Numbered from the stretch's first letter, positions 1,055 to 45,522 are shown. The stretch is DNA of 64,000 nt from Candidatus Falkowbacteria bacterium (GCA_018693855.1 JABHMO010000043.1:72154-136153); one strand, 5' to 3'. Notes: generated by a model from the letters alone, not told the origin. Program-made: numbers and translations.

Positions 1055-1088
1055 AAAAAACCGAGAATGGTCATTCTCGGTTTTTTAT
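1055..1088 (+). terminator. Rho-independent terminator after gatB, built from a REP-like palindrome
   Basis: An A-run is followed by the hairpin CCGAGAATGG/TCATTCTCGG and then TTTTTT. It is the same palindrome family as the hairpin at 4293-4316 and those flanking the RAYT gene. Confidence 0.7.
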
Positions 1089-1134
1089 CTTGCGCATAAA
1101 AATGCCTAATTTTAGTTAAAAATGCCCCCAAAAC

Positions 1135-1163
1135 TTGACAAATAATTTTTATTAATATATAAT
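1135..1163 (+). promoter_or_regulatory. Consensus sigma70-type promoter (TTGACA-17-TATAAT) driving a short non-coding transcript
   Basis: TTGACA sits at 1135-1140, a 17-nt spacer follows, and TATAAT sits at 1158-1163. No plausible CDS lies downstream before the terminator at about 1236-1270. Confidence 0.55.
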
Positions 1164-1167
1164 TTGA

Positions 1168-1272
1168 GTACAAATTCACAAAAATGTGTTATATTACATC
1201 GACGGCGTGGGATACGTTTCCACAATCACCACGCCCCCCGGACTGCCCTCTTAGGCGGTCCGGTTTTCTTTT
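1168..1272 (+). ncRNA. Candidate small RNA of about 100 nt, identity unknown
   Basis: It is bounded by the consensus promoter and an intrinsic terminator (CCGGACTGCC…GGCGGTCCGG followed by TTTTCTTTTT). The region is locally GC-rich and has nested stems (GGCGTGG…CCACGCC; GTGGGA…TTCCAC). Only spurious ORFs overlap it. Confidence 0.4.
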
Positions 1273-2174
1273 TATTCATTTTTCAATATTTTATTCACTT
1301 GATTATAATTATCTATCCAACTAATTGTTCTATCCCTTTTAAACCAAGTCATCTGTCTCTTTGCATATCGCCTATTATCTCTTTGATTAAGTTCAATAGC
1401 ATCTTCCATACTAATCTCATCTTGCAAGTATTTTACCACATTTTTGTATCCAATTCCACTTAGAGCAGGTGATTTAGAATCTATTCCATTATCAAGCAAG
1501 TTCTTCACTTCCTCAACTAAACCTTCATCAAACTGTTCCTTGGCTCGTTTATCAAGCTTTTCGCACAGTTTTTCACGTTCAGTTTTCATTCCAAATTGGA
1601 CAAATTCATACTCTGACTCCCCTTTTTCAAAGGTCAGAGGCTCCCTTGTGCTTGAACAAATTTGGTATGCACGAAGCACTCTCCGAGAGTTAGTTGACTC
1701 AATTTTGTGTTCAATCTCCGGATCGATCTTTTTTATTTCTGATAATAAATATTCAATCCCTTTTGTTTTGAGTAGTTTCTCAGCTTTTTGTCTTAATTTA
1801 GGATCATATCCCTTGCCCAGCTGATAATTATTAACCAAAGCTGAGAGATATAAACCTGTTCCTCCAACAATGACAGGCAATTGATCAGGGTGATCTTTAA
1901 TACACTTTTTACAAGCCTTTAGCCAGTCATCAAGCGTAAATTCCTTATCCGGAGCAACTATGTTAACAAGACACTCTTCTATCCCCTTCCAGTAGTATTT
2001 TCCATTTTCAAGCTCAACTGGGTCCTTATTAGTCCCAATAGCCATTTTCTGATAGATCTGCCGTGAATCAGCCACAATCAAAAAACCATTAAAATCTTTA
2101 GCTATTTTATAAGCAATTTCAGATTTCCCTGAACCTGTCGGCCCAAGTACAATTATGACTTTCTTTTTATCCAT
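1272..2174 (-). CDS. miaA: tRNA dimethylallyltransferase
   Basis: The protein has an N-terminal P-loop (GPTGSGKS), an ADSRQIYQ motif, and the length and architecture typical of MiaA. Confidence 0.9.
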   Translation of the reverse strand: MDKKKVIIVLGPTGSGKSEIAYKIAKDFNGFLIVADSRQIYQKMAIGTNKDPVELENGKYYWKGIEECLVNIVAPDKEFTLDDWLKACKKCIKDHPDQLPVIVGGTGLYLSALVNNYQLGKGYDPKLRQKAEKLLKTKGIEYLLSEIKKIDPEIEHKIESTNSRRVLRAYQICSSTREPLTFEKGESEYEFVQFGMKTEREKLCEKLDKRAKEQFDEGLVEEVKNLLDNGIDSKSPALSGIGYKNVVKYLQDEISMEDAIELNQRDNRRYAKRQMTWFKRDRTISWIDNYNQVNKILKNE

Positions 2175-2219
2175 ATATTTGATACCATGATTATAACGAT
2201 ATTTAACTAATTTTACAAT

Positions 2220-2792
2220 ATGAAAACTATTTATCTAATCCATGGTTGGGACGGGAGTCCTAAGGAACCAATGCATCAATGGATTAAAACTCAACTTGAA
2301 CAAAAAGGATACACAGTCATTATTCCGAAAATGCCAGATCCTGAAGTACCAAAAATTGAAACATGGATCCCCTTTTTAACAGAAATCATACTGAACTTAG
2401 ATGAAAACAGTTATTTAATTGGACATAGCGTTGGTTGCCAAGCTGTTTTGCGATTTATGGAAACCTTGCCAGAAGAAATTAAACTTTCTGGAGTAATTTT
2501 GATCGCACCATGGATGCATCTTGATGAACAAACTATTAAGGATGAGGGGGAAGAAATTGTTGAGATTGCAAAACCTTGGATGGAAACACCAATCGATTGG
2601 AAAAAAGTTAAATCTCATACAAATAACTTTACTTGTCTTCTCTCTGACAATGATCCATACGTTCCCCTTTCAAATAAAGAACTATTCGAAAAAAGTCTTA
2701 ATGCAAAAATTATAATAGAAAAAAACAAAGGTCATTATACAGAAGACGATTCAATCATTGAAAATCAAACTGTAATTGATCTTATTCGTTAA
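2220..2792 (+). CDS. Alpha/beta serine hydrolase of the YdeN/RBBP9-like family
   Basis: It begins IHGWDGSP…HW, carries a GHSVG nucleophile elbow, and is about 190 aa long. Confidence 0.65.
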   Translation: MKTIYLIHGWDGSPKEPMHQWIKTQLEQKGYTVIIPKMPDPEVPKIETWIPFLTEIILNLDENSYLIGHSVGCQAVLRFMETLPEEIKLSGVILIAPWMHLDEQTIKDEGEEIVEIAKPWMETPIDWKKVKSHTNNFTCLLSDNDPYVPLSNKELFEKSLNAKIIIEKNKGHYTEDDSIIENQTVIDLIR

Positions 2793-2811
2793 TACTTCTA
2801 GCATTTTTCAT

Positions 2812-3918
2812 ATGAAACAAGCATTACAAGACCTAGTAAAACAAGCTGACATTCAAATTAATGGCGATCGACCTTGGGATATTCAAGTTAAAAATGAGGA
2901 CTTTTATAAACGAGTTCTGGCCGGTGGGTCTTTGGCTCTTGGAGAATCCTATATGGATGGTTGGTGGGAATGCGAAGCACTTGATCAGTTTATTGATCGA
3001 GTTTTAAGTATTGATTTGGATCAAAAAGTAAGGAATTCAAAAAGCTTACTTTGGAGTGTAGTAAAAGCAAAGCTTTTTAATCAACAAACAAGAACAAAAT
3101 CAAAAGTTGTTGGAGAAAAACATTATGATGTTGGTAATGATCTGTATCAACAAATGCTAGACAAAAACATGTGCTACAGTTGTGGGTATTGGAAAGAGGC
3201 TGACAACCTTGATGATGCACAGGAAGCAAAGCTTGATTTAATTTGCAAAAAATTAAAACTTAAACCAGGTATGACAGTTTTAGATATTGGTTGTGGCTGG
3301 GGCAGTTTTGCAAAATTCGCAGCAGAAAAATATCAAGTAAAAGTTGTTGGATTAACTATTTCAAAAGAACAAGCCAAACTAGCCAAAGAAAGATGTGAAG
3401 GACTTGATGTAGAAATTCGTCTCCAAGATTATAGAGATGTAAATGAAAAATTTGATAGAATTTTGTCAATTGGTATGTTTGAACATGTTGGATGTAAAAA
3501 TTACAGAGAATACTTCAAAACAGTTAACAGATGCCTTAAAGACAATGGATTAACGTTAATTCACACAATTGCAGGCAACAGATCAGTAACAGGAACTGAG
3601 CCTTGGATCGGTAAATATATTTTCGCAAATAGTATGCTCCCTTCAGCTGTTCAAATAACAAAAGCTTACGAGGGACTATTCAGACTTGAAGATTGGCACA
3701 ATTTTGGAACTTATTACGATACAACACTGATGGCATGGCACAAAAACTTCAATGACAACTGGGAAAAAATAAAAGACAACTACGATGAGCGTTTTTTCAG
3801 AATGTGGAACTACTATTTACTTTGCTGTGCAGGATCATTCCGATGTCACAAGAACCAACTCTGGCAGATCGTCTTTTCTAAGGTAAAATCAAAAAGCATC
3901 TATGAGAGCATTAGATAA
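2812..3918 (+). CDS. cfa: Cyclopropane-fatty-acyl-phospholipid synthase family SAM-dependent methyltransferase
   Basis: It has the SAM-binding motif DIGCGWGS and a Cfa-like N terminus (INGDRPWDIQVKNEDFYKRVL…GESYMDGWWE). The start was moved to ATG 2812 to match the Cfa N terminus. Confidence 0.85.
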   Translation: MKQALQDLVKQADIQINGDRPWDIQVKNEDFYKRVLAGGSLALGESYMDGWWECEALDQFIDRVLSIDLDQKVRNSKSLLWSVVKAKLFNQQTRTKSKVVGEKHYDVGNDLYQQMLDKNMCYSCGYWKEADNLDDAQEAKLDLICKKLKLKPGMTVLDIGCGWGSFAKFAAEKYQVKVVGLTISKEQAKLAKERCEGLDVEIRLQDYRDVNEKFDRILSIGMFEHVGCKNYREYFKTVNRCLKDNGLTLIHTIAGNRSVTGTEPWIGKYIFANSMLPSAVQITKAYEGLFRLEDWHNFGTYYDTTLMAWHKNFNDNWEKIKDNYDERFFRMWNYYLLCCAGSFRCHKNQLWQIVFSKVKSKSIYESIR

Positions 3919-3930
3919 TTATATATATCA

Positions 3931-4293
3931 ATGACATCTAACACTTCTTTTTCTATGAAAAAAACACTAACTTGGTTACCGAGAATTTTAACAATCATTT
4001 TCATCTGCTTCATCAGCATGTTTGCGCTAGATGCGTTTTCAGATCCAAACGGGTTTTGGTTAAATTTAGCAGGCTTTTTAATTCACTTAGTTCCAAGCTT
4101 TGCTTTAATTATCTGCCTAATTTTGGCATGGAAAAAACCGCTTATAGGCGGCATTATTTTTATATTTCTATCAGTTGTGTTCACTTTTGCATTCGACACT
4201 TATGAAGATGTAGTAACTTTGCTTATAATTTCATTCCCATTACTACTTGTAGGCATACTTTATCTTGTTGATTTTCACTTGCGTAAGAAATAA
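3931..4293 (+). CDS. Small integral membrane protein, hypothetical
   Basis: It encodes 120 aa with three or four hydrophobic helices and is followed directly by a terminator. Confidence 0.4.
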   Translation: MTSNTSFSMKKTLTWLPRILTIIFICFISMFALDAFSDPNGFWLNLAGFLIHLVPSFALIICLILAWKKPLIGGIIFIFLSVVFTFAFDTYEDVVTLLIISFPLLLVGILYLVDFHLRKK

Positions 4294-4323
4294 CCGAGAA
4301 TGCGCATTCTCGGTTATTTTTTA
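4293..4323. terminator. Bidirectional intrinsic terminator built from a REP-like palindrome
   Basis: The hairpin AACCGAGAATGCGCATTCTCGGTT is flanked by an A-run on one side and a T-run on the other. It lies between the convergent genes at 3931-4293 (+) and 4314-5588 (-). Confidence 0.7.
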
Positions 4324-5588
4324 ATAGTCCCTTTCAACACCCACTCTACCGCCTCTTTTACTTCTACGTCAATAAGATCACCTTCATTACAATCACAATC
4401 ATAAACACGAACTCTCTTCATCTCACGTGAATTGCCCTCACAAAATTCGGACGTTTTTTTATCTATTAAAACAGATACTGTTTTACCAATAAACTTCTTA
4501 CTTTTTTCAAGAGCAATCTTCATCATAACTGCGTGAAGTTCATGCCATCGACGTCGTTTCTCATCTTGAGAAACATCATCTTCAAGATTAGCAGAAGCTG
4601 TTCCACCTCTAGGTGAATAAGTTGCGTTAAATGAAATATCAAACTTAACTTTTTTATAAAATTTCAGAGTGTTTTCAAACATTTCTCTTGTTTCACCGGG
4701 AAAACCGAGCATAATGTCTGTACCTATTGCAATATTTGGATTAAATTTTCTTAACTTTTTTACAATACGAAAATAATCGCGCGCTGTATAGTTTCGATTC
4801 ATTGCTTTTAGAATATCATCATCACCACTTTGCAAAGGCAGATGTAAATAGTTCAATAATTTTGACAAACCTAAAGCATGCAAAACTTCATCACTCATAT
4901 CTTTTGGATGTGATGACGTAAAATGAATTCTTGATATATAATTAATTCGGTTAACTTCCCAAAGCAATTTCGCAAAATTATGATCATATGGATTGTCTTT
5001 TGCAAAATTTTCAACATCTACTGGATCATAAGAGTTTACATTTTGACCTAACAGTTGTATTTCTTTATAGCCCTTTTTTGCCAAAGCCTTAATTTCCGCT
5101 AAAACATCCTTCACTGTTCGACTAGTCTCTCTACCTCGGACATAAGGGACGGCACAGTATGAGCAATAATTATTACAGCCTGTCATAATTGGAACAAATG
5201 CTTGATAACTGTTTGAATATGATGGCAAAACATCAAAATAGTCTTCATTAACATATTCACTTTCATCATGTAAAAACTTCTCTAATTCAGAAAGATCTTT
5301 TATGTTGAAGATTAGATCAAACCGTTTTTTATACTTTTCTTTATCTTCAGGTAACACACAACCAGTCAATATTCGCTTAATTTGCGGTTTCTTTTCTAAT
5401 TCTTTAAGCAGCCCCAAAGCACGATCCATAGCAGTTTGTCTAACACTGCAAGCATTGATAACCACAAAATCAGCTTGTTCCATCTCATCAACAAGTGAAT
5501 ACTTTAAGTGTTCAAAAACAGACTTAATTCGCTCTGAATCAGACTTATTCATTTGGCAACCAAAGGTAATAATGTGGTATTTGCTCAT
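4314..5588 (-). CDS. miaB: Radical-SAM methylthiotransferase, MiaB-like tRNA 2-methylthioadenosine synthase
   Basis: It has an N-terminal MTTase domain (ITFGCQMN), the radical-SAM cluster CNNYCSYC, and a C-terminal TRAM-like region. Discrimination between MiaB and RimO is not certain. Confidence 0.75.
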   Translation of the reverse strand: MSKYHIITFGCQMNKSDSERIKSVFEHLKYSLVDEMEQADFVVINACSVRQTAMDRALGLLKELEKKPQIKRILTGCVLPEDKEKYKKRFDLIFNIKDLSELEKFLHDESEYVNEDYFDVLPSYSNSYQAFVPIMTGCNNYCSYCAVPYVRGRETSRTVKDVLAEIKALAKKGYKEIQLLGQNVNSYDPVDVENFAKDNPYDHNFAKLLWEVNRINYISRIHFTSSHPKDMSDEVLHALGLSKLLNYLHLPLQSGDDDILKAMNRNYTARDYFRIVKKLRKFNPNIAIGTDIMLGFPGETREMFENTLKFYKKVKFDISFNATYSPRGGTASANLEDDVSQDEKRRRWHELHAVMMKIALEKSKKFIGKTVSVLIDKKTSEFCEGNSREMKRVRVYDCDCNEGDLIDVEVKEAVEWVLKGTIKK

Positions 5589-5675
5589 AAGATGTAGCTA
5601 TTGCAATTTTATTTAATTTTACGTAAAATAGCATAACACATTAATAAAACAATATCAACAGACTACCACTTCATT

Positions 5676-6107
5676 ATGTACGAAAAAAGTGGTATAATTA
5701 TCAATATGTTAATTCACTTCTATAAAATTGTAAACAGTTTCAAGACAAATCCAGCAAAACGAGATAAACTAATCATTATTTCACTAATTTTGTCTGTAAT
5801 AATCAACCTTTTAATTTGGATTCTTATTTACACTAAATTAAAACCAGCCATCATACTGAGCGGAAAAGCGGAAGCTTTTATTCCCTTACACTACAACATT
5901 TACATGGGGATTGATTCATTTGGAAACTGGAAATGGATATTCTTATTACCAGTAATCGGATTATTGTTTACTTTTGCAAATGGCATTATTTCTTTCCTAC
6001 TTTATAACAAAAAAAAGATACTTAGTTACTTTCTATCGTTAACAATGCCTCTTATTCAAATTTTACTATTACTTTCGACTCTATTTATTGTTTTAATAAA
6101 TATTTAA
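5676..6107 (+). CDS. Hypothetical polytopic membrane protein
   Basis: It encodes 143 aa and is strongly hydrophobic with four predicted TM segments. It sits directly upstream of mraY. Confidence 0.4.
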   Translation: MYEKSGIIINMLIHFYKIVNSFKTNPAKRDKLIIISLILSVIINLLIWILIYTKLKPAIILSGKAEAFIPLHYNIYMGIDSFGNWKWIFLLPVIGLLFTFANGIISFLLYNKKKILSYFLSLTMPLIQILLLLSTLFIVLINI

Positions 6108-6108
6108 T

Positions 6109-7158
6109 ATGGAAACAGCAATTATGTTTAAAATTGGACTTCTATCTATCATATCGTTTTTAGTTGCTTTTTTTGCAACTCCGTTATTAACTCATTTTTT
6201 ATTCAAAAAGAAATTCGGCAAGCAAATCAGAGACTCAAAATCAGCTCCAATTTTCGCAGCACTGCATAAACAGAAAGCTGGGACACCAACAATGGGTGGT
6301 ATTCTAATTTGGGGAACAGTATTAGTTATTTCCTTAATTTTCGCTGCCCTTGCATACTTTGCCCCTGACACATTCTTTGAGAAATTAAATTTCCTAACAA
6401 GAGAACAAACATTACTTCCATTAGGTGCTTTGATTTTCACAGCCATTATCGGACTTGTAGATGACTATCTAGGTGTCAGAAAAATTGGTCCAAAGGGTGG
6501 TGGGTTAAATGTTGGTTATAAATTAGTATTATATACATTAATAGCAGCGATTGGAGCAGTTTGGTTTTATTTCAAATTAGATTGGGACGTTTTTCACGTT
6601 CCCTTTATTGGCAATTTTGAAATAGGTCTTTGGTATATTCCTATTTTTATATTAGTTTTAGTCGCAACGTCATTTTCAGTTAACGAGATAGATGGACTAG
6701 ATGGACTAGCTGGTGGAACTGTGGCTGCAGTTTTAGCAGCTCAAGGAGCGATTGCCTTTACTCAAGGTAAATTTGAATTAGCTGCTTTTATCGGAGTTCT
6801 AATAGGTGCCTTGATCGCTTTTCTTTGGTTCAATATCAACCCAGCACGATTTTTCATGGGAGATACTGGTTCAATGAGCTTAGGTATAACAATCGGAATT
6901 ATTGCCATGTTAACGAACACTGCCCTACTATTACCAATCATTGGATTCATCTTTGTTATTGAATCGCTATCAGTGATAATTCAATTACTATCTAAAAAAT
7001 TCCGACATAAAAAAGTCTTTTTATCAGCACCAATCCATCATCATTTCCAAGCCAAAGGTTGGACAGAACCAAAAGTAGTAATGAGATTCTGGTTAATCAG
7101 CGCTGTCAGCGCCGTCGCTGGAGTAATTATCTTTTTGATGGACAAAGGCTGGTATTAA
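6109..7158 (+). CDS. mraY: Phospho-N-acetylmuramoyl-pentapeptide transferase
   Basis: It carries the MraY motifs VDDYLGV, NEIDGLDGLAGG and FFMGDTGSMSLG and has a polytopic membrane profile. Confidence 0.95.
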   Translation: METAIMFKIGLLSIISFLVAFFATPLLTHFLFKKKFGKQIRDSKSAPIFAALHKQKAGTPTMGGILIWGTVLVISLIFAALAYFAPDTFFEKLNFLTREQTLLPLGALIFTAIIGLVDDYLGVRKIGPKGGGLNVGYKLVLYTLIAAIGAVWFYFKLDWDVFHVPFIGNFEIGLWYIPIFILVLVATSFSVNEIDGLDGLAGGTVAAVLAAQGAIAFTQGKFELAAFIGVLIGALIAFLWFNINPARFFMGDTGSMSLGITIGIIAMLTNTALLLPIIGFIFVIESLSVIIQLLSKKFRHKKVFLSAPIHHHFQAKGWTEPKVVMRFWLISAVSAVAGVIIFLMDKGWY

Positions 7159-7177
7159 GGGAACACAAAAATACAAA

Positions 7178-7240
7178 TAAGTTACAAATTTACAAATGTG
7201 TTTGGATAGGGTCATCTAAGTACATTTGTAAATTTGTATG
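7178..7240. promoter_or_regulatory. Perfect 16-bp inverted repeat (ACAAATTTACAAATGT / ACATTTGTAAATTTGT) in the mraY-murD spacer
   Basis: The two arms are exact reverse complements separated by about 22 nt. The surrounding sequence is rich in TTGTA/TACAA repeats. Confidence 0.5.
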
Positions 7241-7260
7241 CAATTTGTAATTTGTATTCT

Positions 7261-8583
7261 ATGAAGTTTCCTAATTATAAAAATAAAAAAGTACTTATAC
7301 TCGGTCTAGGTTTACTAGGGCGAGGAGTTAAGGATGCTATTTTTTTTGCTGAGAAGGGTGCTAGCGTTACAGTTACTGACTTAAAGTCAAAAGAAGAATT
7401 AACTGAATCACTTGAGAAGCTAAAACCATACGATATTAAATACACTCTAGGTGAGCATAAAAAAGAAGACATTATTGGATCTGACCTTATAATTCGAAAT
7501 GCAGCAGTACCAGCTGATTCAAAATTTTTAAAATTAGCACAAAAACATAAAATTCCTGTTGAGATGGACGAATCACTATTTGCAAAGTACTGCCCCTGCC
7601 CTATTATCGGAATCACTGGGACTCGCGGAAAAACAACTACAACAATTTTACTTGGAGAAGTTCTAAAAGAAAATATAAAAGATAAAAATATTTTAGTTGC
7701 TGGAAACCTTCAAGGTCAAGCGACCTTACCTCTAATTGATCAAGTAAAAAAAGACGATATCGTTATATTAGAACTATCAAGTTGGCAATTACAAGGATTT
7801 GAAAAAAATGAGATTTCTCCTCAGATAGCAATTTTCACAAACGTATATCCAGATCACTTAAACAGCTATAAAACAATAAAAGAGTATGTGGCTGATAAAA
7901 AGAATATTTATAAATTTCAAAAAAAATCAGATCATTGCATACTTAACAAAGAAAATGGCTATACAAATAAGTTAGAAAAAGAAGTTCCATCACAAATCAC
8001 TTGGTTTAGAAAAAAAGATGTTCCGAAAAAACTAAAAACTAAATTGCTAGGGAATCATAATCTAGAAAATATTGCAGCTACACTCGCAGTGACAAAAATT
8101 TTAGATATTCCAATAGAACAAGTAATAAAAAGCATTGAAAAGTTCAAAGGAGTTCCTCATCGACAAGAATTTGTAAAAAACATCAATGGAATTGATTTTA
8201 TTAATGATACTACAAGTACAACTCCAATTGCAGGTAAAAAAGCCTTAGATAGCATTACAACACCGATCATCTTAATTGCTGGTGGAGCAACGAAGAATTT
8301 GAATCTGAATCCATTTGCAAAAGCTATTACAAAAGAATGTAAAGCCGTTATCTTACTTGAAGGTACAGCCACTGACGAACTTGAAAGAAAAATTAGAAAA
8401 AATGGCGGGAAAGAACTTATCATTGATAGATTTGATGATTTTCAGGCAGCGATTGAAAAAGCTTATTCTCTAGCCTTACCAAATGACACAGTACTCCTGT
8501 CTCCAGGTGCAGCAAGCTTTGGTATATTTGCAAATGAGTTTGATAGAGGTGACCAGTTCAAAAGAATAGTTAATCAACTATGA
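7261..8583 (+). CDS. murD: UDP-N-acetylmuramoylalanine--D-glutamate ligase
   Basis: It has the Mur ligase ATP-binding motif GITGTRGKTTTT and an N-terminal Rossmann region KKVLILGLGLLG. Its position after mraY matches dcw-cluster order. The start was moved to ATG 7261. Confidence 0.9.
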   Translation: MKFPNYKNKKVLILGLGLLGRGVKDAIFFAEKGASVTVTDLKSKEELTESLEKLKPYDIKYTLGEHKKEDIIGSDLIIRNAAVPADSKFLKLAQKHKIPVEMDESLFAKYCPCPIIGITGTRGKTTTTILLGEVLKENIKDKNILVAGNLQGQATLPLIDQVKKDDIVILELSSWQLQGFEKNEISPQIAIFTNVYPDHLNSYKTIKEYVADKKNIYKFQKKSDHCILNKENGYTNKLEKEVPSQITWFRKKDVPKKLKTKLLGNHNLENIAATLAVTKILDIPIEQVIKSIEKFKGVPHRQEFVKNINGIDFINDTTSTTPIAGKKALDSITTPIILIAGGATKNLNLNPFAKAITKECKAVILLEGTATDELERKIRKNGGKELIIDRFDDFQAAIEKAYSLALPNDTVLLSPGAASFGIFANEFDRGDQFKRIVNQL

Positions 8584-9692
8584 GTAATCATCATAAACCT
8601 GATTATTTATTGATTATTGCTTTTGCCGCAATAATTCTTTTTGGACTGTTAATGCTCAGCAGTGCTGGCGCAGCCATTAGTTACCAACAGTTTGGAGACA
8701 GCTTTTATTTTGTAAAACATCAAATCTTACTTGGTTTAATTCCAGGTATTTTTTTATTGTTAATAATGGCAAAAATAAATTATCAGTTCTGGAAAAAGCT
8801 AACTATTCCCCTACTTGGAGCGTCAATATTTTTATTAATTCTTGTTTTCATACCTGGAGTGGGTGCTGAATTTGGAAGCGCCCGCAGTTGGGTTCACGTT
8901 GGAAATCTTTTCTCATTCCAACCAGCCGAGCTGGTAAAGATAACGTTCCTTCTTTATCTTGCCAACTGGTTAGAGAAAAGAGGCGCGACTGGAATAAAAG
9001 ACTTCTACTACGGATTTCTACCATTTTTATTTCTACTTGGAGTAATCTCCATTTTAATGATCAAACAACCTGACATGGGAACACTGTCAGTCATCATATT
9101 CATGAGTATGGCCGTGTTTTTTGCCTCTGGAGCGAAGATAAAACACGTAGCGATGATGGTTGGCGGAGGAGTAGCAGCTATTTACGCAATGATACTGTAC
9201 TCACCTTATCGTGCGGCTAGATTAACAACTTTCTTGCATCCAGAACTTGATCCTCAAGGGATTGGTTACCACATCAATCAAGCTTTTCTAGCAATTGGTT
9301 CAGGTGGATTTTGGGGAAGAGGATTTGGTCATAGTAGACAGAAATTTCAATACCTACCAGAAGCAATCGGTGACTCTATCTTCGCAATTATTGGAGAAGA
9401 GTTAGGATTCATCTTTTGCATTATAATTTTAGCACTGTTTATTTTCATCATGTACAGAGCAATCTTAGTCGCAAAAAGTTCAATTGATCAGTTCGGCAGA
9501 TTAGTTGTCATTGGAATTATCAGTTGGTTCACATTTCAAGCATTTTTCAACATTTCATCAATGATTGGTTTAACACCAATGACTGGAATTCCTTTACCTT
9601 TCATAAGTTATGGAGGAACAGCCCTTGCTGTGAACATGGCAGCAATTGGTATTTTGATTAATATTTCCAGACAAACAAAGAAGAGCAATTAA
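8580..9692 (+). CDS. ftsW: SEDS-family peptidoglycan glycosyltransferase FtsW
   Basis: It has ten TM segments and the SEDS family signature, sits downstream of murD, and has a 4-bp overlap consistent with translational coupling. Confidence 0.9.
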   Translation: MSNHHKPDYLLIIAFAAIILFGLLMLSSAGAAISYQQFGDSFYFVKHQILLGLIPGIFLLLIMAKINYQFWKKLTIPLLGASIFLLILVFIPGVGAEFGSARSWVHVGNLFSFQPAELVKITFLLYLANWLEKRGATGIKDFYYGFLPFLFLLGVISILMIKQPDMGTLSVIIFMSMAVFFASGAKIKHVAMMVGGGVAAIYAMILYSPYRAARLTTFLHPELDPQGIGYHINQAFLAIGSGGFWGRGFGHSRQKFQYLPEAIGDSIFAIIGEELGFIFCIIILALFIFIMYRAILVAKSSIDQFGRLVVIGIISWFTFQAFFNISSMIGLTPMTGIPLPFISYGGTALAVNMAAIGILINISRQTKKSN

Positions 9693-9699
9693 TTATATA

Positions 9700-9738
9700 A
9701 ACAAAAAAGACTTCTAAGTGAAGTCCTTTTTTATTACA
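9700..9738. terminator. Bidirectional terminator between ftsW (+) and the cysteine desulfurase gene (-)
   Basis: The hairpin AAGACTTC…GAAGTCCTT is flanked by A- and T-runs. Confidence 0.55.
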
Positions 9739-9751
9739 TTGATATATTTAT

Positions 9752-10918
9752 TTACGGTGCCATTTTTCGAAGTTTTTCAATAACAACTGAAAGAGCTTTT
9801 ATAAAAACAGCCACTTCGACTTCGCTATTAAATTTACTTAAAGAAATTCGGATACTTCCATGTGACCATTCAGGTTTTCGCCCCATTGCTGATAAAACGT
9901 GAGACGGTTCAAGTGAACCAGAAGAGCAAGCTGAGCCAGTTGAAATAGCAATGCCTTCCATATCTAGCATCATTAAAATACTTTCGCCTTCAGCTTTTAG
10001 AAAACTGACATTCAAAATATTTGGTAATGAAGTACTTAAATCACAGTTTATTTTAATATTATCTATTTTACTAATTTCTTTAACTAATTTATCTCTTACC
10101 TTTTTTACCTTTTTGAAATTTGCTTTACCTTCACTTGAAATAAGTTCAATCGCTTTTGCTAAACCAACTATCCCAGGAACGTTAGCTGTCCCAGGTCGAA
10201 CACCAAACTCTTGATGTCCACCAAACTGTACGGGTGAAAATTTGACACCTTTTTTAATAAACATTGCACCAATACCTTTTGGTCCGTTTATTTTATGGCC
10301 TGACATTGTTAAAAAATCACAGTTAAGTTCAGAGACGTCACAATCAAGATAGTTCACAGCTTGTACGGCGTCTGTATGGAAATATAGAGGTAATTTTTTG
10401 TCTCTTTTTTCATTCTCTGTTTTAATTAGTTCCCCAATTTCTTTAATTGGTTGAACAGAACCAACTTCATTGTTAGCATACATAACAGAGACTAAAACTG
10501 TATTTGATTTTATCAATTTTTGTAATTTACCAACTAGAACAACCCCATTTTCATCAACTGGAACATAATCAATTTTCACTCCCCTTTTCTTCATCTCTCG
10601 ACAAGTTTCAAGTACAGAAGGATGTTCAATTGCTGAACAAATAATATGTATATTCTCTTTGAATTTGTTTACAACTCCCTGAATCGCAATATTATTCCCT
10701 TCAGTTGCTCCCGCAGTAAAAATAATTTCTTGATTTTCACAATTGAAAAACTTAGCCACAGTTTCCCGTGCTTTTTCAACTGCATCAAGAGCAATCTGCC
10801 CTTGCGAGTGAACGGCATGAGGATTTGCAAAATGTTCCGTATAAAACGGAATCATCTCTGCAATCACCCTATCATCAACCTTAGTTGTAGCTGCATTGTC
10901 GTAGTATATATTCTTCAT
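9752..10918 (-). CDS. iscS: Cysteine desulfurase (class V aminotransferase, NifS/IscS-like)
   Basis: It has the PLP-lysine region SGHKINGPKGIGA and a C-terminal active-site-Cys loop (…STGSACSSG…). It lies in an operon with iscU and nfu. Confidence 0.85.
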   Translation of the reverse strand: MKNIYYDNAATTKVDDRVIAEMIPFYTEHFANPHAVHSQGQIALDAVEKARETVAKFFNCENQEIIFTAGATEGNNIAIQGVVNKFKENIHIICSAIEHPSVLETCREMKKRGVKIDYVPVDENGVVLVGKLQKLIKSNTVLVSVMYANNEVGSVQPIKEIGELIKTENEKRDKKLPLYFHTDAVQAVNYLDCDVSELNCDFLTMSGHKINGPKGIGAMFIKKGVKFSPVQFGGHQEFGVRPGTANVPGIVGLAKAIELISSEGKANFKKVKKVRDKLVKEISKIDNIKINCDLSTSLPNILNVSFLKAEGESILMMLDMEGIAISTGSACSSGSLEPSHVLSAMGRKPEWSHGSIRISLSKFNSEVEVAVFIKALSVVIEKLRKMAP

Positions 10919-10925
10919 AAAGAAA

Positions 10926-11088
10926 CGATGCTAATTTGCGAATTATGCGAATGCTGCGAACGCTTCGCCATGCTAATTTGCGAATTACGCGAATAGTTAA
11001 TATTCGTATCATTAGAGTAATTCGCAAATTAGCATCCCAGTACATTTTCGCATCATTCGCATAACATTCGCGGATTTGCATCGGTTTA
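10926..11088. repeat. Copy 1 of a roughly 160-bp imperfect palindromic intergenic element (MITE/REP-like)
   Basis: It contains GCTAATTTGCGAATTA(C/T)GCGAATA…TATTCGTA…TAATTCGCAAATTAGC. It fills the nfu-iscS spacer exactly and is near-identical to the copies at about 35929-36080, 36417-36535 and 46128-46292. Confidence 0.8.
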
Positions 11089-11313
11089 TATTTTTTCAAC
11101 ACCACTCACCTCTGGTATTTGTTTTTTAAGATAAGTTTCTATTCCTTGGTGAAGAGTAATTTCTGCCATGGGACAACCGTGGCATGCACCGGTTAATTTT
11201 ACCTTTACAATCCCCTCCTCCGTTACTTCAACAAATTCAACGTCTCCCCCATCTGCTTGTAGTGAAGGTCGAATTTCGTTTAGAACTTCTTGTATTTTCT
11301 TTTCGTCTATCAT
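11086..11313 (-). CDS. NifU-like C-terminal domain protein (Nfu-type Fe-S cluster carrier)
   Basis: It encodes 75 aa with a CxxC motif (GACHGCPMAEITL) characteristic of the Nfu/NifU C-terminal domain. Confidence 0.7.
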   Translation of the reverse strand: MIDEKKIQEVLNEIRPSLQADGGDVEFVEVTEEGIVKVKLTGACHGCPMAEITLHQGIETYLKKQIPEVSGVEKI

Positions 11314-11320
11314 AATTATA

Positions 11321-11362
11321 GTGAATCGAAGTAAATCGCAGTAAAGCGAAGTAAATCGAAGC
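11321..11362. repeat. Tandem array of 10-bp units (GTAAATCGAA-like) filling the iscU-nfu spacer
   Basis: The units are gtgaatcgaa, gtaaatcgca, gtaaagcgaa and gtaaatcgaa. The same unit family occurs at 40051-40110, 41891-41930 and 60821-60869. Confidence 0.75.
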
Positions 11363-11366
11363 TAGA

Positions 11367-11747
11367 TTATTTTTCTTTATTTTTATAATTAGTTATAGCG
11401 CTCTGTAATCCTTCTTCCGCTAGGATTGAACAGTGATATTTTACAGCGGGCACATCACCTCCTAAATGAGCGACTACATCGTCCTTTGTAATTGCTAACG
11501 CTTGATCAAAGGTTTTCCCTTTTGCAAGTTCAGTCAAAGCAGAGGAAGCTGCGATCGCAGCAGCACATCCAAGTGTTTCAAATTTAACATCTTTAATAAC
11601 TTCCTTATCTTTATCAACTTTAATATATATTTTCATGATGTCTCCACATTTAATATTTCCAACCTCACCAACTGCGTCAGCATCTTTAATAACACCTTGA
11701 TTTCGAGGTTTCTTAAAATGATCGAGTAATGTTTCACTATATTTCAT
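11367..11747 (-). CDS. iscU: Fe-S cluster assembly scaffold, IscU/NifU N-terminal domain
   Basis: It encodes 126 aa with three conserved Cys (…GNIKCGD…, LGCAAA…, …HCSILA…). Confidence 0.85.
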   Translation of the reverse strand: MKYSETLLDHFKKPRNQGVIKDADAVGEVGNIKCGDIMKIYIKVDKDKEVIKDVKFETLGCAAAIAASSALTELAKGKTFDQALAITKDDVVAHLGGDVPAVKYHCSILAEEGLQSAITNYKNKEK

Positions 11748-11829
11748 ATATGTTATGTTAAGAAATTTAATTTAAATTTAGATTCTCACTTTAATCTTTC
11801 AACTTTTTACTTTAATCTTTTCCCTATAT

Positions 11830-12213
11830 TTATAATGAGTTTAATGTTTTATTTTTTAGAACTTTTTCCAATGATTTATAGATTTCTACCCAGATACGAT
11901 GGACAGAGCAACCACCAGGTTTACAAACAGCTCCGTCAGCACATTTATACGGTTTAACATCACCTTCCAAAACGATGATAACATCAAAAAGTTTAATTTG
12001 TCCGGCTGGTTTAGCTAAATAGTATCCGCCCTTTTTACCAAGATCAGCTTTTACGATTTTGGCTTTTTTTAATGAGGCAAACATTCTTTCTAGATAAGCT
12101 AATGAAATCTTTTCTTCTTTTGCGACAGACGCCAAAGAAACCGCTTTTTTACCGGTTTTATCTAGCTGACTCAGGGCTCGCAAGCCATACTCTGTTCTAG
12201 TTGAAAATTTCAT
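11830..12213 (-). CDS. iscR: Rrf2-family transcriptional regulator (IscR-like)
   Basis: It has an N-terminal wHTH (RTEYGLRAL) and a Cys cluster (KCADGAVCKPGGCSVH), and is the first gene of the isc-like operon. Confidence 0.8.
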   Translation of the reverse strand: MKFSTRTEYGLRALSQLDKTGKKAVSLASVAKEEKISLAYLERMFASLKKAKIVKADLGKKGGYYLAKPAGQIKLFDVIIVLEGDVKPYKCADGAVCKPGGCSVHRIWVEIYKSLEKVLKNKTLNSL

Positions 12214-12242
12214 AATGCCGACTTAATTAGTAGGTTAAAGAC

Positions 12243-12271
12243 ATCATAACAATTTTGTAAAAAATTGTCAA
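12243..12271 (-). promoter_or_regulatory. Sigma70-type promoter for iscR (TTGACA-17-TATGAT on the minus strand)
   Basis: On the plus strand the -35 box is tgtcaa at 12266-12271 and the -10 box is atcata at 12243-12248, with a 17-nt spacer. It lies about 30 nt upstream of the iscR start. Confidence 0.55.
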
Positions 12272-12322
12272 TAATAAAAACAGCGCTGTTATTTACAGCC
12301 CTGTTACTTTTTATAAAAGTGA

Positions 12323-12745
12323 CTAGGTGCTTGGCATCATCACAGAGCACCAATCTTTTGAATCAACCGGTCGCTGCAATACGTCAAACCTATGTAGAGT
12401 ACCTTTTCCCGTCCTTGCATCATAGAATCCATTAAGAATCATCACTTTCAGGCTTAAACCGTCTTCACTCAGTATTTGTGGAGTAACACAGACGATTTGC
12501 AAGTCCCGTATTCTCACCAAGGATGACCACCTTGAACATCCAAGTATAAACAATTCAACCCTTTTTGATGTTTTATTCATTTTGTCTGATTCCACAATTC
12601 TAAAAATTTTGGACCTCCTACGAGTCAATGCTCGAAAAAAAGATCGTCCACGAGGCCCCTTACCTACTATCTCAAAAGGATCGAACGGAAAGTCAAAAAT
12701 ACAAGATGCTTTTTTTATAGGCAATTCAAGCTGGTTCCAAGTCAT
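12323..12745 (-). CDS. Hypothetical protein (140 aa); could alternatively be a non-coding or pseudogenic segment
   Basis: It has an AAGGAG Shine-Dalgarno 7 nt before the ATG, which is atypical for this genome. Local GC is elevated and there is no recognisable domain. An overlapping plus-strand ORF at 12582-12833 has equally atypical composition. A minus-strand promoter lies at about 12850 and a terminator at about 12285. Confidence 0.25.
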   Translation of the reverse strand: MTWNQLELPIKKASCIFDFPFDPFEIVGKGPRGRSFFRALTRRRSKIFRIVESDKMNKTSKRVELFILGCSRWSSLVRIRDLQIVCVTPQILSEDGLSLKVMILNGFYDARTGKGTLHRFDVLQRPVDSKDWCSVMMPST

Positions 12746-12893
12746 AACAATCTCCTTTAATCTAACTGATGTTGTTTATGCTACAACATGGATTATCTTT
12801 TTAGACCGAATATATAAGGTTACACAAAAATAACAAATTTGTCAATATACAAAAAAATCGCCTAACATGACGATTCATTTGTAATTATTTAAG

Positions 12894-13730
12894 TTATTTC
12901 TTGATAATCAAAATCCTCGCTTCACCACGCAGAATACTCATTGCTTTTTGCTCATCTGTCATATCAGCTTCGTAAAGTCGGATTGGTTCATCATTCTCAT
13001 CTTCTGGTAGATCATGGATTGCGTTTAGAACTGTTTTGAATTTGAATTTATAGCCTCTCCCACTCATAATACCAACGTCATTTGTAATAAACTGATCACC
13101 ATCATAGCCTCTTATTAAAATATAGTGATAGATTGGACCGAGGTTACTATAGTATGGATTTCCGAGTAGACGACCAGCTGTTGGTACAATTACAAGATTA
13201 CCATCAGCTAACTGATTTTTTATATTATCTAAACTGATGTCGTCAGTAATCTCAGTATTTAAGTTATAATACTCTCGCGCAATCTGATCCACTTCCGCGA
13301 GTGAAGTATCAGTATATGAACCGAATTTATCCATCTGCCAATCAACAACTGATTTGATTTCCTCATCCATCTGATCAGCTGTAATCGTTTGATTATTAAA
13401 GTAACGATGAGCTAAAATCAAAACTGCCTCTTCACATGCTTCCTGATATGGCATCCCCCAATTTCGATGTGGAGCTTGCGATTGGAATGGAACATCTAAA
13501 TCAATCATTGCTGCTGATAAATTTTCTTCTAAAACAGGATCCTCAACTTGATCAGCAGGTTCAACGTCTTCATCGTTACTAATTTCCACTGCGTCATTTT
13601 CATCTTGAAGTTCAGTTTCCTCAATTTTGGGGTCATTAGTACCACTTTCTTCCACAACAAAGTTCTCTGACTCATTAGTACAGGCAGTCAGAGAAAAAAC
13701 TAGTAAAATTAGTATAAATAGTTGCTTCAT
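12894..13730 (-). CDS. Lipoprotein with a C39-like (papain-fold) cysteine peptidase domain
   Basis: It has a signal peptide with a lipobox (LTAC) and an acidic low-complexity linker. The C-terminal domain has a Q…C (QEAC) and His (GPIYHY) arrangement resembling the Peptidase_C39-like family. Confidence 0.45.
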   Translation of the reverse strand: MKQLFILILLVFSLTACTNESENFVVEESGTNDPKIEETELQDENDAVEISNDEDVEPADQVEDPVLEENLSAAMIDLDVPFQSQAPHRNWGMPYQEACEEAVLILAHRYFNNQTITADQMDEEIKSVVDWQMDKFGSYTDTSLAEVDQIAREYYNLNTEITDDISLDNIKNQLADGNLVIVPTAGRLLGNPYYSNLGPIYHYILIRGYDGDQFITNDVGIMSGRGYKFKFKTVLNAIHDLPEDENDEPIRLYEADMTDEQKAMSILRGEARILIIKK

Positions 13731-13770
13731 AGTTACATTTTACTACAGATCGATAAATAACACAATCAGC

Positions 13771-13799
13771 TTGACATCTTCATTGAAATAATGTAGAAT
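13771..13799 (+). promoter_or_regulatory. Sigma70-type promoter for rpmA (TTGACA-17-TAGAAT)
   Basis: TTGACA sits at 13771-13776, a 17-nt spacer follows, and TAGAAT sits at 13794-13799. Confidence 0.6.
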
Positions 13800-13886
13800 G
13801 TTGATACACGTAAATATAAATTGGTTAAACGACTTAGCAGACCTCTTATTGGTCTTCTATAGCCCTCTTTAGCCTTCTTAATAAGT

Positions 13887-14171
13887 ATGGCACATAAAAA
13901 GGCAGGTGGAAGTACTAGTAATGGACGAGATTCCAATGCTCAACGGCTTGGTGTAAAAAGATACGGTGGACAAACTGTTGTATCTGGTAATATCTTGGTC
14001 CGACAACGAGGTACAAAATTTCACCCAGGTGAAAATGTAATGAAAGGTAAAGATGACACCCTTTTTGCAACTATCAACGGAATCGTTGAATTCACACATA
14101 AAAAAGTCAAAAAGTTCACTGGTAGATTAACCAAAAGAACTTTCATCAATATCGTTCCAGAAAAAAAATAA
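13887..14171 (+). CDS. rpmA: 50S ribosomal protein L27
   Basis: The protein begins [28 protein letters not shown]…[11 protein letters not shown], a clear L27 signature. Confidence 0.95.
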
Positions 14172-14183
14172 CTTCTTAAAAAA

Positions 14184-14212
14184 CTCAGCCGTAGGGCTGG
14201 GTTTTTTGTTTG
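14184..14212 (+). terminator. Intrinsic terminator after rpmA
   Basis: The hairpin CAGCCgtagGGCTG is followed by GGTTTTTTG. Confidence 0.65.
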
Positions 14213-14222
14213 ATGAATTTCA

Positions 14223-14876
14223 TTATGGCAGTTTATCAATCATATTTGTAAATTCTGAATTAAGGGATGACCAAGGATAATTCTGCCAACTTTCAGCAAT
14301 GCCGTGTTTAGAAGGGTTTCTATGGATGTAATTAAGTTTGTTCATTAAATCAGATTTATTCCTTGCATATCTATCATGAAAAGATTTATGCCATTTGAAT
14401 TTAGGATATTCCATCAAAGAATGCTTATTTATAAAATCATTTTTAAGTCTAGATAGTCTATTCCATCTATTCATTTGTTTTTCATATTGATTAATTAAAG
14501 AAATATCAATAGAATCTTTATTATCCCGAGAATGAGAATCTTTATTATCCTGAGAATGCGAGTCTTTATTATCCCGAGAATGCGGATTCTCGGGTACTGA
14601 AAGTTGATTATGGGAGAGGATTCTATTGATATTTTGGGAAGAATTCTTTTTTATTGATTTCATGATATTTGAAATGGATTCATCATTTGATCTAATGAGC
14701 ATATGAAAATGTTCTAAATTTATAATAAATGCAAAAAGATCAAAGCCATAATAATCCTTTGATTCTTTTATCTCATCAATTAAGCATCTGCTTAAAATAG
14801 GATTCTCAAAATATTCAATATTTCGAAACGTGTTTGTCGTCGTCAAATAATATTTCCCTTTATAAAAATTCCTCAT
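14223..14876 (-). CDS. REP-associated tyrosine transposase (RAYT) / IS200-like Y1 transposase
   Basis: It has a HuH motif (LEHFHML), and a C-terminal region typical of the IS200/Transposase_17 fold (…DRYARNKSDLMNKLNYIHRNPSKHG…). REP-like palindromes sit at its 5' end and inside the ORF. The start is placed at ATG 14874-14876; the ORF-track GTG start lies within the palindrome. Confidence 0.65.
   Translation of the reverse strand: MRNFYKGKYYLTTTNTFRNIEYFENPILSRCLIDEIKESKDYYGFDLFAFIINLEHFHMLIRSNDESISNIMKSIKKNSSQNINRILSHNQLSVPENPHSRDNKDSHSQDNKDSHSRDNKDSIDISLINQYEKQMNRWNRLSRLKNDFINKHSLMEYPKFKWHKSFHDRYARNKSDLMNKLNYIHRNPSKHGIAESWQNYPWSSLNSEFTNMIDKLP
14523..14594. repeat. Three tandem 24-bp units derived from the REP palindrome, lying inside the RAYT coding sequence
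   Basis: The units are atcccgagaatgagaatctttatt, atcctgagaatgcgagtctttatt and atcccgagaatgcggattctcggg. They encode the repeat HSRDNKDS/HSQDNKDS. Confidence 0.8.
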
Positions 14877-14893
14877 ATCTTTATTAATCAGTA

Positions 14894-14915
14894 CCCGAGA
14901 ATCCGCATTCTCGGG
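14894..14915. repeat. REP-like palindrome CCCGAGAATCCGCATTCTCGGG at the 5' end of the RAYT gene
   Basis: It is a perfect 9-bp-arm palindrome of the same family as the hairpins at 1061-1080, 4293-4316 and 14573-14594. Confidence 0.8.
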
Positions 14916-14949
14916 CACTGATTTGATTTTAATTATTATTAATTATAAC

Positions 14950-14979
14950 TAGGGACAACTTTGTCGTTGTCCCTAAATT
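14950..14979 (-). terminator. Hairpin terminator downstream of the 706-aa secreted protein gene
   Basis: It has perfect 10-bp arms, TAGGGACAAC/GTTGTCCCTA, followed by an AT-rich tract. Confidence 0.45.
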
Positions 14980-14997
14980 TTTGAATAAATTGTGTCA

Positions 14998-33119: not shown

Positions 33120-33284
33120 AGAATCGCAAGGAGACTATACGGGGCCAGCCCGCAATGTCTACGCATAGCGTTGCTGGCGGGCTAAACGAGGCCATTAAGG
33201 AGGCTAACCCCAAATTATGTCACTCCGGACACGCCTGCCCTCCGTAGTTTTCTAAACGAAGGTGGGATCCGGAGTCTGGCCAAG
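33120..33284. repeat. Composite GC-rich leader/intergenic element (AGAATCGCAAGG-GGCTATA motif, a 52-bp conserved core, and an ACTCCGGA…TCCGGAGT hairpin)
   Basis: The 52-bp core GGGGCCAGCCCGCAATGTCTACGCATAGCGTTGCTGGCGGGCTAAACGAGGC is near-identical at 45446-45500. The AGAATCGCAAGG(R)G(R)CTATA part is shared with the hisS leader at 59231-59272. The hairpin is shared with the element at 57826-57856. Confidence 0.75.
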
Positions 33285-45435: not shown

Positions 45436-45522
45436 AGGAAAAGGGGCCAGCCCGCAATGTCTACGCATAGCGTTGCTGGCGGGGCTAAACGAGGCTATAC
45501 GAGGCTATAAAAGGCTTTCGGA
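45436..45522. repeat. Second copy of the 52-bp GC-rich core plus GAGGCTATA direct repeats, immediately upstream of the start codon
   Basis: The sequence GGGGCCAGCCCGCAATGTCTACGCATAGCGTTGCTGGCGGGGCTAAACGAGGCTATACGAGGCTATAAAAGGC is near-identical to 33140-33192. Confidence 0.75.

Follow-up and report, generated by a model that had tools for sequence, protein, structure and literature searches.

A probable REPtron in a Candidate Phyla Radiation genome: a RAYT-type gene with cognate hairpins upstream of it, inside it and, as terminator-like variants, behind other genes

TnpA-Y1 proteins have been split into subclasses (Quentin, Siguier, Chandler and Fichant, 2018; PMC6006769). Repetitive extragenic palindromes (REPs) located inside the tnpA-REP gene, in frame between the HuH and the Y motif, are a hallmark of subclass 2.4, as are short DNA repeats in the linker, "double-foot" REPs and three G-C pairs at the bottom of the stem (PMC6006769). 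Because of their position in a peripheral loop, the in-gene insertions were judged probably harmless (PMC6006769). The same proteins form group 4 of the REP-associated tyrosine transposases (RAYTs), in which the flanking 16-mer averages about 14 occurrences (Bertels et al., 2017; PMC5581495). We analyzed a stretch of 64,000 nucleotides from a Candidatus Falkowbacteria bacterium (GCA_018693855.1 JABHMO010000043.1:72154-136153), hereafter called the window. It encodes a RAYT-type protein and carries the same hairpin upstream of this gene, in the disordered linker between its HuH and Y motifs and, as a variant without foot that is flanked by A/T tracts, 3' of other genes. Judged by its sequence, this locus is best read as a REPtron, that is a single-copy, vertically inherited and probably still catalytic RAYT-type HUH/Y1 enzyme together with its cognate hairpin family, in a host of the Candidate Phyla Radiation (CPR). 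We put the probability of this reading at roughly three in four.

The locus shares with subclass 2.4 a protein of about 200 amino acids in which the HuH and W/Y motifs are separated by an insertion of variable length that contains short DNA repeats. It also shares REPs that lie in frame inside the gene and flank it, the "double-foot" architecture, a stem closed at its base by three G-C pairs, and what appears to be a low copy number of genes and associated REPs. On the contrary, the host belongs to the CPR and not to the Cyanobacteria or Bacteroidetes, and the foot reads GT[AG]C instead of GT[AG]G. The motifs NH[IFV]H, WQ and YIxNNP of the subclass are EHFH, WH and YIHRNP in the window protein, and DHxH ([DN]HxH), WQ and YIxxNP in the consensus of its clade. 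A tblastn search against plasmids gave no match. An earlier note on this DNA, made from the sequence alone, had regarded tandem REP units within a transposase open reading frame (ORF) as unusual. For this kind of RAYT the view cannot be kept, since REPs within the gene were described for subclass 2.4 in 2018 and were found here in all ten long homologues. Since in-gene REPs are already a hallmark of this subclass (PMC6006769), the window locus extends a known kind. A RAYT with its own REP is here a CPR addition to what has been published, an extension of an already known phenomenon and not a discovery.

The earlier note had further identified the gene product as a RAYT-type Y1 transposase, and profile and structure comparisons bear this out. 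The protein matched the NCBIfam model NF047646 (REP_Tyr_transpos) with 85.5 bits against a cut-off of 80 (E = 3e-24) and the Pfam family Y1_Tnp (PF01797) with 30.3 bits against a cut-off of 23, while the score for the IS200 model NF033573 stayed below its cut-off (22 bits vs 55). Both the HuH motif and the YIHRNP signature are present (Table 1). In alignments of 22 and 60 homologues H56, W162 and Y183 are invariant, and H58 is conserved in at least 90% of the sequences. Gene callers proposed alternative starts at a GTG (14918, 231 amino acids) and at a TTG (207 amino acids); the ATG start used here agrees with the N-termini of the aligned homologues. A profile of the 22-member family was run with hmmsearch against the PDB and matched one sequence only, E. 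coli TnpA-REP (4ER8, E = 5.6e-19). The match falls into two pieces (residues 4-88 and 94-138 of 4ER8, the latter aligned to the Y-motif region), hence about 60 residues, the linker of the CPR clade, replace about 5 residues of the E. coli protein. An AlphaFold model reached a mean predicted local distance difference test score (pLDDT) of 90 and a predicted template modelling score of 0.84. Foldseek returned 4er8_A as top match (E = 5e-8), followed by the ISDra2 and IS608 transposases, which have the HUH/Y1 fold (E ~1e-4). In this model residues 87-124, including the REP-encoded peptide, are assigned as coil by DSSP, with a mean pLDDT of 54-55 over residues 101-120, and a clade-specific helix follows at residues 125-151. 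The model thus looks like that of an intact enzyme with a predicted disordered loop as its REP-encoded segment.

E. coli TnpA-REP (YafM/RayT), a member of subclass 2.2, is the best match by sequence profile and by structure. Both systems have the HuH/W/Y...NP core and cognate hairpins that are also located at gene 3' ends, and the gene, single-copy in E. coli, appears to be so here. Besides the linker, the hairpins differ: the REPs of E. coli are bulged and GTAG-footed, occur in high copy number and are absent from the inside of the gene. The residues that guide recognition of GTAG are W94, Q95, W99, E100, H101 and R104 (Figure S11 in PMC6006769), and a hand alignment to 4ER8 places W, H, H, D, R and R at these positions of the window protein. 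All contigs examined contain a single RAYT locus, syntenic with that of an orthologue (L173; order RAYT, rpmA, C39 peptidase), and no tnpB gene adjoins RAYT on them. One REP copy is located 18 nt upstream of the gene and one within it; the 3' flank is occupied by the unrelated rpmA terminator. Two side observations concern this locus. Between the C39 peptidase gene and RAYT the hairpin TAGGGACAACTTTGTCGTTGTCCCTA is found at 14950-14975. It is kept in L173 (460-485), with its closing pair compensated from T-A to C-G, and is probably the terminator of the peptidase gene. Furthermore, an ENA contig of 3,611 bp encodes a protein (P0154) in which the first 165 residues of the 231-residue product are followed by a histidine-kinase H-box-like tail (NISHEFKTPI...), a fusion that reflects either a true rearrangement or an assembly chimera.

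The hairpins at the gene resemble each other closely. The palindrome that had been noticed at the 5' end of the gene is part of a longer stem of 16 pairs with 1 mismatch (14886-14923; -28.6 kcal/mol, z = -7.2). The segment CAGTA-CCC...GGG-CACTG at 14889-14920 forms the double foot and the three G-C pairs that close the base of the stem. The 5' foot TCAGT[GA] is common to the upstream and the in-ORF copy on the coding strand, and since the upstream copy carries the inverse foot at its 3' side too, 28 nt of the in-ORF copy are its exact reverse complement. Inside the gene, three tandem REP units had been reported. The array of three 24-bp units is real and is translated as HSRDNKDS/HSQDNKDS/HSRDNKDS (residues 99-122, within the disordered loop). 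However, both arms are present in one unit only, and the other two consist of one arm plus flank, giving one complete REP and two half-units. The 106-nt repeat region as a whole folds no better than shuffled sequences (z = -1.2), and only the local 9-bp hairpin stands out. As a side observation, the segment 14876-14918 with the upstream REP is itself open and in frame, in the codon phase of the in-ORF copy (PENADSR vs PENPHSR), and the flank TAATAAAGA is common to both copies. This suggests that the 5' region of the RAYT gene and its linker exchanged sequence, by duplication or gene conversion.

Table 1. Coordinates of the RAYT gene, its motifs and the REP-type hairpins in the window.
Feature	Position	Strand	Remarks
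REP-type hairpin AAAAAACCGAGAATGGTCATTCTCGGTTTTTT	1055..1086		7 nt past the gatB stop; A-tract, stem, T-tract
REP-type bidirectional terminator-like hairpin	4284..4323		17 pairs, 1 mismatch
RAYT / TnpA-REP gene	14223..14876	(-)	217 amino acids from ATG; profile and structure matches
Catalytic tyrosine motif Y183-IHRNP, class-2 "Y...NP" signature	14313..14330	(-)	W162 upstream of the motif
24-bp x 3.0 tandem array	14512..14584		Tandem Repeats Finder score 125, 91% matches
In-ORF palindrome CCCGAGAATGCGGATTCTCGGG = CCCGAGAAT-GCGG-ATTCTCGGG	14573-14594		9-bp arms, 4-nt loop
In-ORF REP with CAGTA foot	14573..14599		foot 5' on the coding strand; encodes V-PENPHSR-D, residues 94-102
HuH motif H56-F57-H58	14703..14711	(-)	alignments of 22 and 60 sequences
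"Double-foot" REP AATCAGTA-CCCGAGAAT-CCGC-ATTCTCGGG-CACTGATT	14886..14923		in frame with the RAYT ORF
Upstream palindrome CCCGAGAATCCGCATTCTCGGG = CCCGAGAAT-CCGC-ATTCTCGGG	14894-14915		ends 18 nt before the ATG

The CCGAGAAT/ATTCTCGG palindrome occupies four sites in the window: upstream of the RAYT gene, within it, after gatB and in the gap between a DUF7670 gene and a miaB-like gene. Its core CGAGAATNNNNATTCTCG (CGAGAAT-N4-ATTCTCG) was matched exactly 4 times in the window, where 0.15 matches are expected. With up to 2 mismatches allowed the count was 5, a number reached in none of 100 shuffles, and CCCGAGAATGCG with at most 1 mismatch gave 8 matches against 0.08 expected. A hairpin scan of the 64 kb placed the four family members among the 12 strongest hairpins. 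Of the two findings that would have refuted the earlier note, a protein that fails the transposase profiles and a palindrome without enrichment elsewhere, neither was obtained: the palindrome also recurs outside the window. A metagenome scan for the degenerate 22-base pattern MCCGAGAATSNNSATTCTCGGK returned 41 stretches. One of them (L150) is a part of the window itself (529-2542), and another (L146) overlaps the start of the window with 100% identity and adds a fifth copy, a 52-nt perfect palindrome that lies about 1 kb left of the window and is flanked by two tandem genes. Two contigs that reach further left (L182, L183) contain no extra copies there. The same core is located on the contigs L154/L170, L140/L157 and L164, each time directly after the end of an ORF, between convergent or tandem genes and mostly preceded by an A-tract and followed by a T-tract. 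These contigs have a GC content of 36-40%, and their tetranucleotide correlation with the window (0.93-0.96) equals that of contigs known to be from the same genome. L154, L157 and L164 share one sample, and L170 comes from the sample that also gave L146. The exact 24-mer AACCGAGAATGCGCATTCTCGGTT is found at four distinct loci. In total, we count 5 certain sites, which fall within about 16 kb of a contiguous stretch of about 70 kb, and some 3 probable ones. This REP family looks low-copy and locally clustered, not like a high-copy, genome-wide REP with its classically more than 100 copies, which agrees with the low 16-mer counts of RAYT group 4.

Some scattered observations on related palindromes may be added. 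A scan of genome contigs for CCGAGAATNNNNATTCTCGG gave at least 119 stretches and, among the matches listed, chance-level single sites in unrelated taxa. Colwellia, Thalassotalea and Acinetobacter recur among these and may have a related REP of their own. Two copies of CCCGAGAATCCTCATTCTCGGT are found on one 62-kb contig (Ga0233430_1000626, containing L151 and L161), and an intergenic CCCGAGAATGCGGATTCTCGGGTA is located at L167:712-733, in a sample shared with L173. Other organisms carry palindromes of the CCGAGAAT type more than once, and related REP families may be present there. Within the DUF7670 ORF, about 310 bp upstream of the palindrome at 4293, an orphan half-site ACCGAGAAT is present at 3978-3986. 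It could be due to chance, since about 0.5 occurrences of a 9-mer are expected on both strands of 64 kb.

The copies away from the RAYT gene had been taken as diverged relatives of its hairpin, and the shared core as well as the arms found in the L173 gene (see below) support this relation. After gatB, whose ORF (8-1048) contains the GatB domains, AACCGAGAATGGTCATTCTCGGTT is located at 1060-1083. The hairpin has 14 perfect pairs, and the 46-nt stretch 1050-1095 folds at -17.2 kcal/mol (z = -5.95). The second site holds AACCGAGAATGCGCATTCTCGGTT at 4293-4316, between the DUF7670 gene (3931-4293, plus strand) and the convergent miaB-like gene (4314-5588, minus strand). Here the whole 20-bp gap consists of the REP-type hairpin, and the outer stem at 4284-4323 holds both stop codons (TAA at 4291-4293; TTA at 4314-4316, a TAA on the minus strand). 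It folds at -21.0 kcal/mol on the plus and -17.1 kcal/mol on the minus strand. A G+C hairpin with a T-run just 3' of a gene is found at 1055-1086, at 4284-4323 on both strands and in the copies of L154, L157 and L164. From the hairpin, the T-run and the place next to stop codons it is reasonable to read the gatB and miaB hairpins as putative intrinsic terminators. Our consensus terminator scan missed both of them, probably by treating the A/T tracts as part of the stem, and they were found by a separate hairpin scan. Rfam at the gathering threshold gave 0 matches in the whole window and ARAGORN predicted 0 tRNAs; the palindromes do thus not belong to a known RNA family. The outer arms vary from site to site, yet are perfectly complementary within each site, while the core remains constant. 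This suggests, as we infer, that the palindromes grew by template switching. E. coli REPs and bacterial interspersed mosaic elements (BIMEs) are palindromic repeats after stop codons or between convergent genes, with a proposed function in transcription attenuation or mRNA stabilisation. In contrast, each copy described here is one long perfect palindrome bordered by A/T tracts, BIME clusters are not formed, and in one case the 20-bp space between two genes is made up entirely of the element, which also provides the two stop codons.

How the in-gene hairpin behaves in the clade was compared among homologues. An exhaustive search of representative proteins yielded 1,435 relatives at E <= 0.001, the closest being 41% identical, while a word-indexed single-sequence search recovered the query's own cluster only. 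The named relatives belong to Falkowbacteria, Peregrinibacteria/Peribacteraceae, Dojkabacteria and the "Patescibacteria group", all CPR, with one from Kiritimatiellales. We compared the DNA of nine long homologues (about 30-40% identical to the RAYT protein) and one short homologue. GC-rich perfect palindromes, one or two per gene, are located at residues 93-153 in all ten long-linker genes, the window included. Their arms belong to different families (CCGAGAAT, GCGCGAAT, GAAGGCGAGG, GCGCCCAA and GAAAGCGGGCAAGCG), and in 8 of the 10 a copy with matching arms was found outside the gene, within the few kb of DNA at hand. The hairpin density is 1.73 per kb inside the long RAYT genes vs 0.19 per kb outside. 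Linkers vary in length, that of the window protein holding tandem DNA repeats, and one codon phase is common to all 12 in-ORF hairpins. For L130 the in-ORF hairpin was foretold from the peptide motif PEGE-x4-PRLQ, and the DNA indeed revealed a 42-nt perfect palindrome, with a second copy 1 kb away that carries a compensatory change. A search of the proteins alone for peptides compatible with a palindrome was judged too unspecific; the simple motif EGE..PRL occurs in 15 of 98 long homologues, which is a lower bound, as it captures one REP family only. The short homologue L181 has neither linker nor in-ORF hairpin and keeps the catalytic motifs.

The syntenic orthologue L173 connects the two hairpin variants. 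Its in-ORF copy has AACCGAGAAT...ATTCTCGGTT arms (...GGTT), which are the arms of the terminator-type copies in the window; terminator-type arms inside this gene thus link both variants. At the orthologous position upstream of the gene the REP is half decayed, with a degraded left arm still present, and a new copy adjoins it. A comparison of window positions 12894-17118 with L173 revealed 39% identity for RAYT, 94% for L27, and 73% and 87% for two C39-like peptidases.

By analogy to E. coli TnpA-REP, the RAYT protein would bind the folded hairpin on single-stranded DNA and cut and rejoin the strand beside it, which could seed or homogenise hairpin copies. The in-gene copy would be old cargo that is tolerated in a disordered loop, and either the enzyme or gene conversion would have kept it close in sequence to the gene-proximal copy. 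Replication slippage may have doubled one arm plus flank twice and so produced the 24-bp array. Template switching is a plausible way in which intergenic copies may have lengthened into long perfect palindromes, and together with the adjoining A/T tracts these would now act as compact, often bidirectional intrinsic terminators. Several points weigh against this REPtron reading. Cleavage, mobilisation and termination are each inferred from sequence. The assignment to subclass 2.4 fits by shared features and not by the hidden Markov models of that study, and the named relatives are CPR or Kiritimatiellales instead of Cyanobacteria or Bacteroidetes. In the gene-proximal copies the foot is CAGT[AG] with a C after it, so that the tetranucleotide reads GTAC or GTGC instead of the canonical GT[AG]G. 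Terminator-type copies do not have the CAGT[AG] foot of the gene-proximal ones at all and may therefore no longer be substrates. The copy number is low, and the certain copies are clustered within about 16 kb; all four copies of the window lie in its first 15 kb, with none between 15 and 64 kb, and no clear T-run accompanies the copy on L146. Finally, RAYT has changed much more rapidly than the adjacent proteins, a possible sign of relaxed constraint.

The alternative that survives best concerns the in-gene copy. Instead of being tolerated cargo, the in-ORF REP might be an ancestral, phase-locked and selected cis element of this RAYT clade that co-evolves in situ with the hairpin specificity of the enzyme, and serves as autoregulatory site, as mRNA structure or as a protected "master copy" that renews the extragenic REPs. 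We regard this as possible, but the less probable view. In line with it, the element persists in all ten long homologues although the proteins are only about 30-40% identical. It always resides in the same linker, and its phase is the same in 12 of 12 hairpins from at least five sequence-distinct palindrome families. The arms follow the extragenic copies of each genome, and the upstream copy of the window is likewise in frame and in the same phase (PENADSR vs PENPHSR). Other phases are viable: the valS ORF on another CPR contig (L179:2674-2703) contains, in frame, the REP-like palindrome TGAAAGCGGCCAAGCGCTTGGCCGCTTTCA. This palindrome belongs to the family of the in-ORF hairpin of this genome's RAYT gene and has a different codon phase. 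However, the loci are phylogenetically related, so that phase counts are not independent, and a shared phase would arise by chance with a probability of about 6% if two frames are open in each family. The linker is disordered and variable in length, the catalytic motifs are kept in L181 without linker or hairpin, and the insertions were considered probably neutral by Quentin et al. (PMC6006769). Constant position and phase, together with arms that match extragenic copies, nevertheless leave room for a functional in-gene hairpin.

A second alternative would separate the terminators from the enzyme. The gatB and miaB hairpins could be ordinary intrinsic terminators unrelated to RAYT, with arms that arose by local duplication or convergence. 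Their missing CAGT[AG] foot and their classic layout of A-tract, stem and T-tract would fit this view, as would the location of all certain copies within about 16 kb of the RAYT gene and the unrelated stems of other terminators in the window. We nevertheless consider it improbable. An identical core of 20-24 nt is present at no fewer than five unlinked intergenic sites, while the degenerate pattern occurs in just 41 stretches of the whole metagenome collection. The in-gene REP of the L173 orthologue has exactly the AACCGAGAAT/ATTCTCGGTT arms, and a constant core with differing outer stems is what is expected of a dispersed element.

It is very improbable that the gene is an autonomous insertion sequence of the IS200/IS605 type or a decaying pseudogene. 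TnpA proteins of this type (IS608, ISDra2) do share the HUH/Y1 fold and bind subterminal hairpins on single-stranded DNA, and the Pfam Y1_Tnp match, the subterminal-like hairpins and the fast divergence from the orthologue could be taken in this sense. However, such elements have a Y...Q motif, are multi-copy and mobile and carry hairpins at the element ends. Here the Y motif is of the class-2 Y...NP type, the IS200 model reaches only 22 bits (cut-off 55), and there is one locus, syntenic in a diverged genome, with no tnpB adjacent. An intact ORF, invariant catalytic residues and a pLDDT of 90 for the model speak against decay. The exact 231-residue product was found on 13 contigs from ENA, Logan and JGI assemblies, covering several samples and different assemblers, and the same protein is present in an NCBI metagenome-assembled genome (MBT4722894.1, Candidatus Falkowbacteria, CPR lineage). 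The three 24-bp units are identical in every member of this cluster, and none of the members has a different number of units. Although assemblers easily go wrong on short tandem repeats with hairpins, an assembly artefact, against which the earlier note had asked for a check, is practically out of the question with identical protein and array on 13 contigs of several samples and assemblers and in both JGI and NCBI records.

Two further features of the window lie apart from the REP family. Between gatB and miaA a perfect sigma-70 consensus (TTGACA, 17 nt, TATAAT; 1135-1163, plus strand) is followed after about 75 nt by a strong hairpin with a T-run at 1238-1263, without significant Rfam match. 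The segment 1135-1263 may encode a small transcript. A GC-rich conserved element of about 55 nt, GGCCTCGTTTAGCCCGCCAGCAACGCTATGCGTAGACATTGCGGGCTGGCCCC, is located at 33139-33195 (minus strand) and 45443-45495 as well as at L154:208-290 and L170:2297-2379, in each case just ahead of a gene, and these genes (PGA_cap, a TSP3-repeat protein, ribosomal protein L9) are unrelated. Rfam gave no match for the element, which folds no better than shuffled sequences; it is a second dispersed repeat or a 5' untranslated region motif of the same genome.

New in this locus are the CPR lineage, the very low copy number and the intergenic gaps built from REPs. The DNA had been suspected to come from a reduced genome, which agrees with the NCBI copy being from Candidatus Falkowbacteria, a CPR lineage; CPR genomes are of the ~1-Mb class. 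One RAYT and a handful of REPs in a small CPR genome constitute a minimal system in which the function of RAYTs can be asked. The comparison of ten homologues adds a constant position, a constant codon phase, arms that follow the extragenic copies and a fast divergence of the protein, and these features make it testable whether the in-gene hairpin is functional or tolerated. If it is indeed selected, the in-gene REP would keep the REP family of the genome, including the REP-derived terminators, matched to the enzyme.

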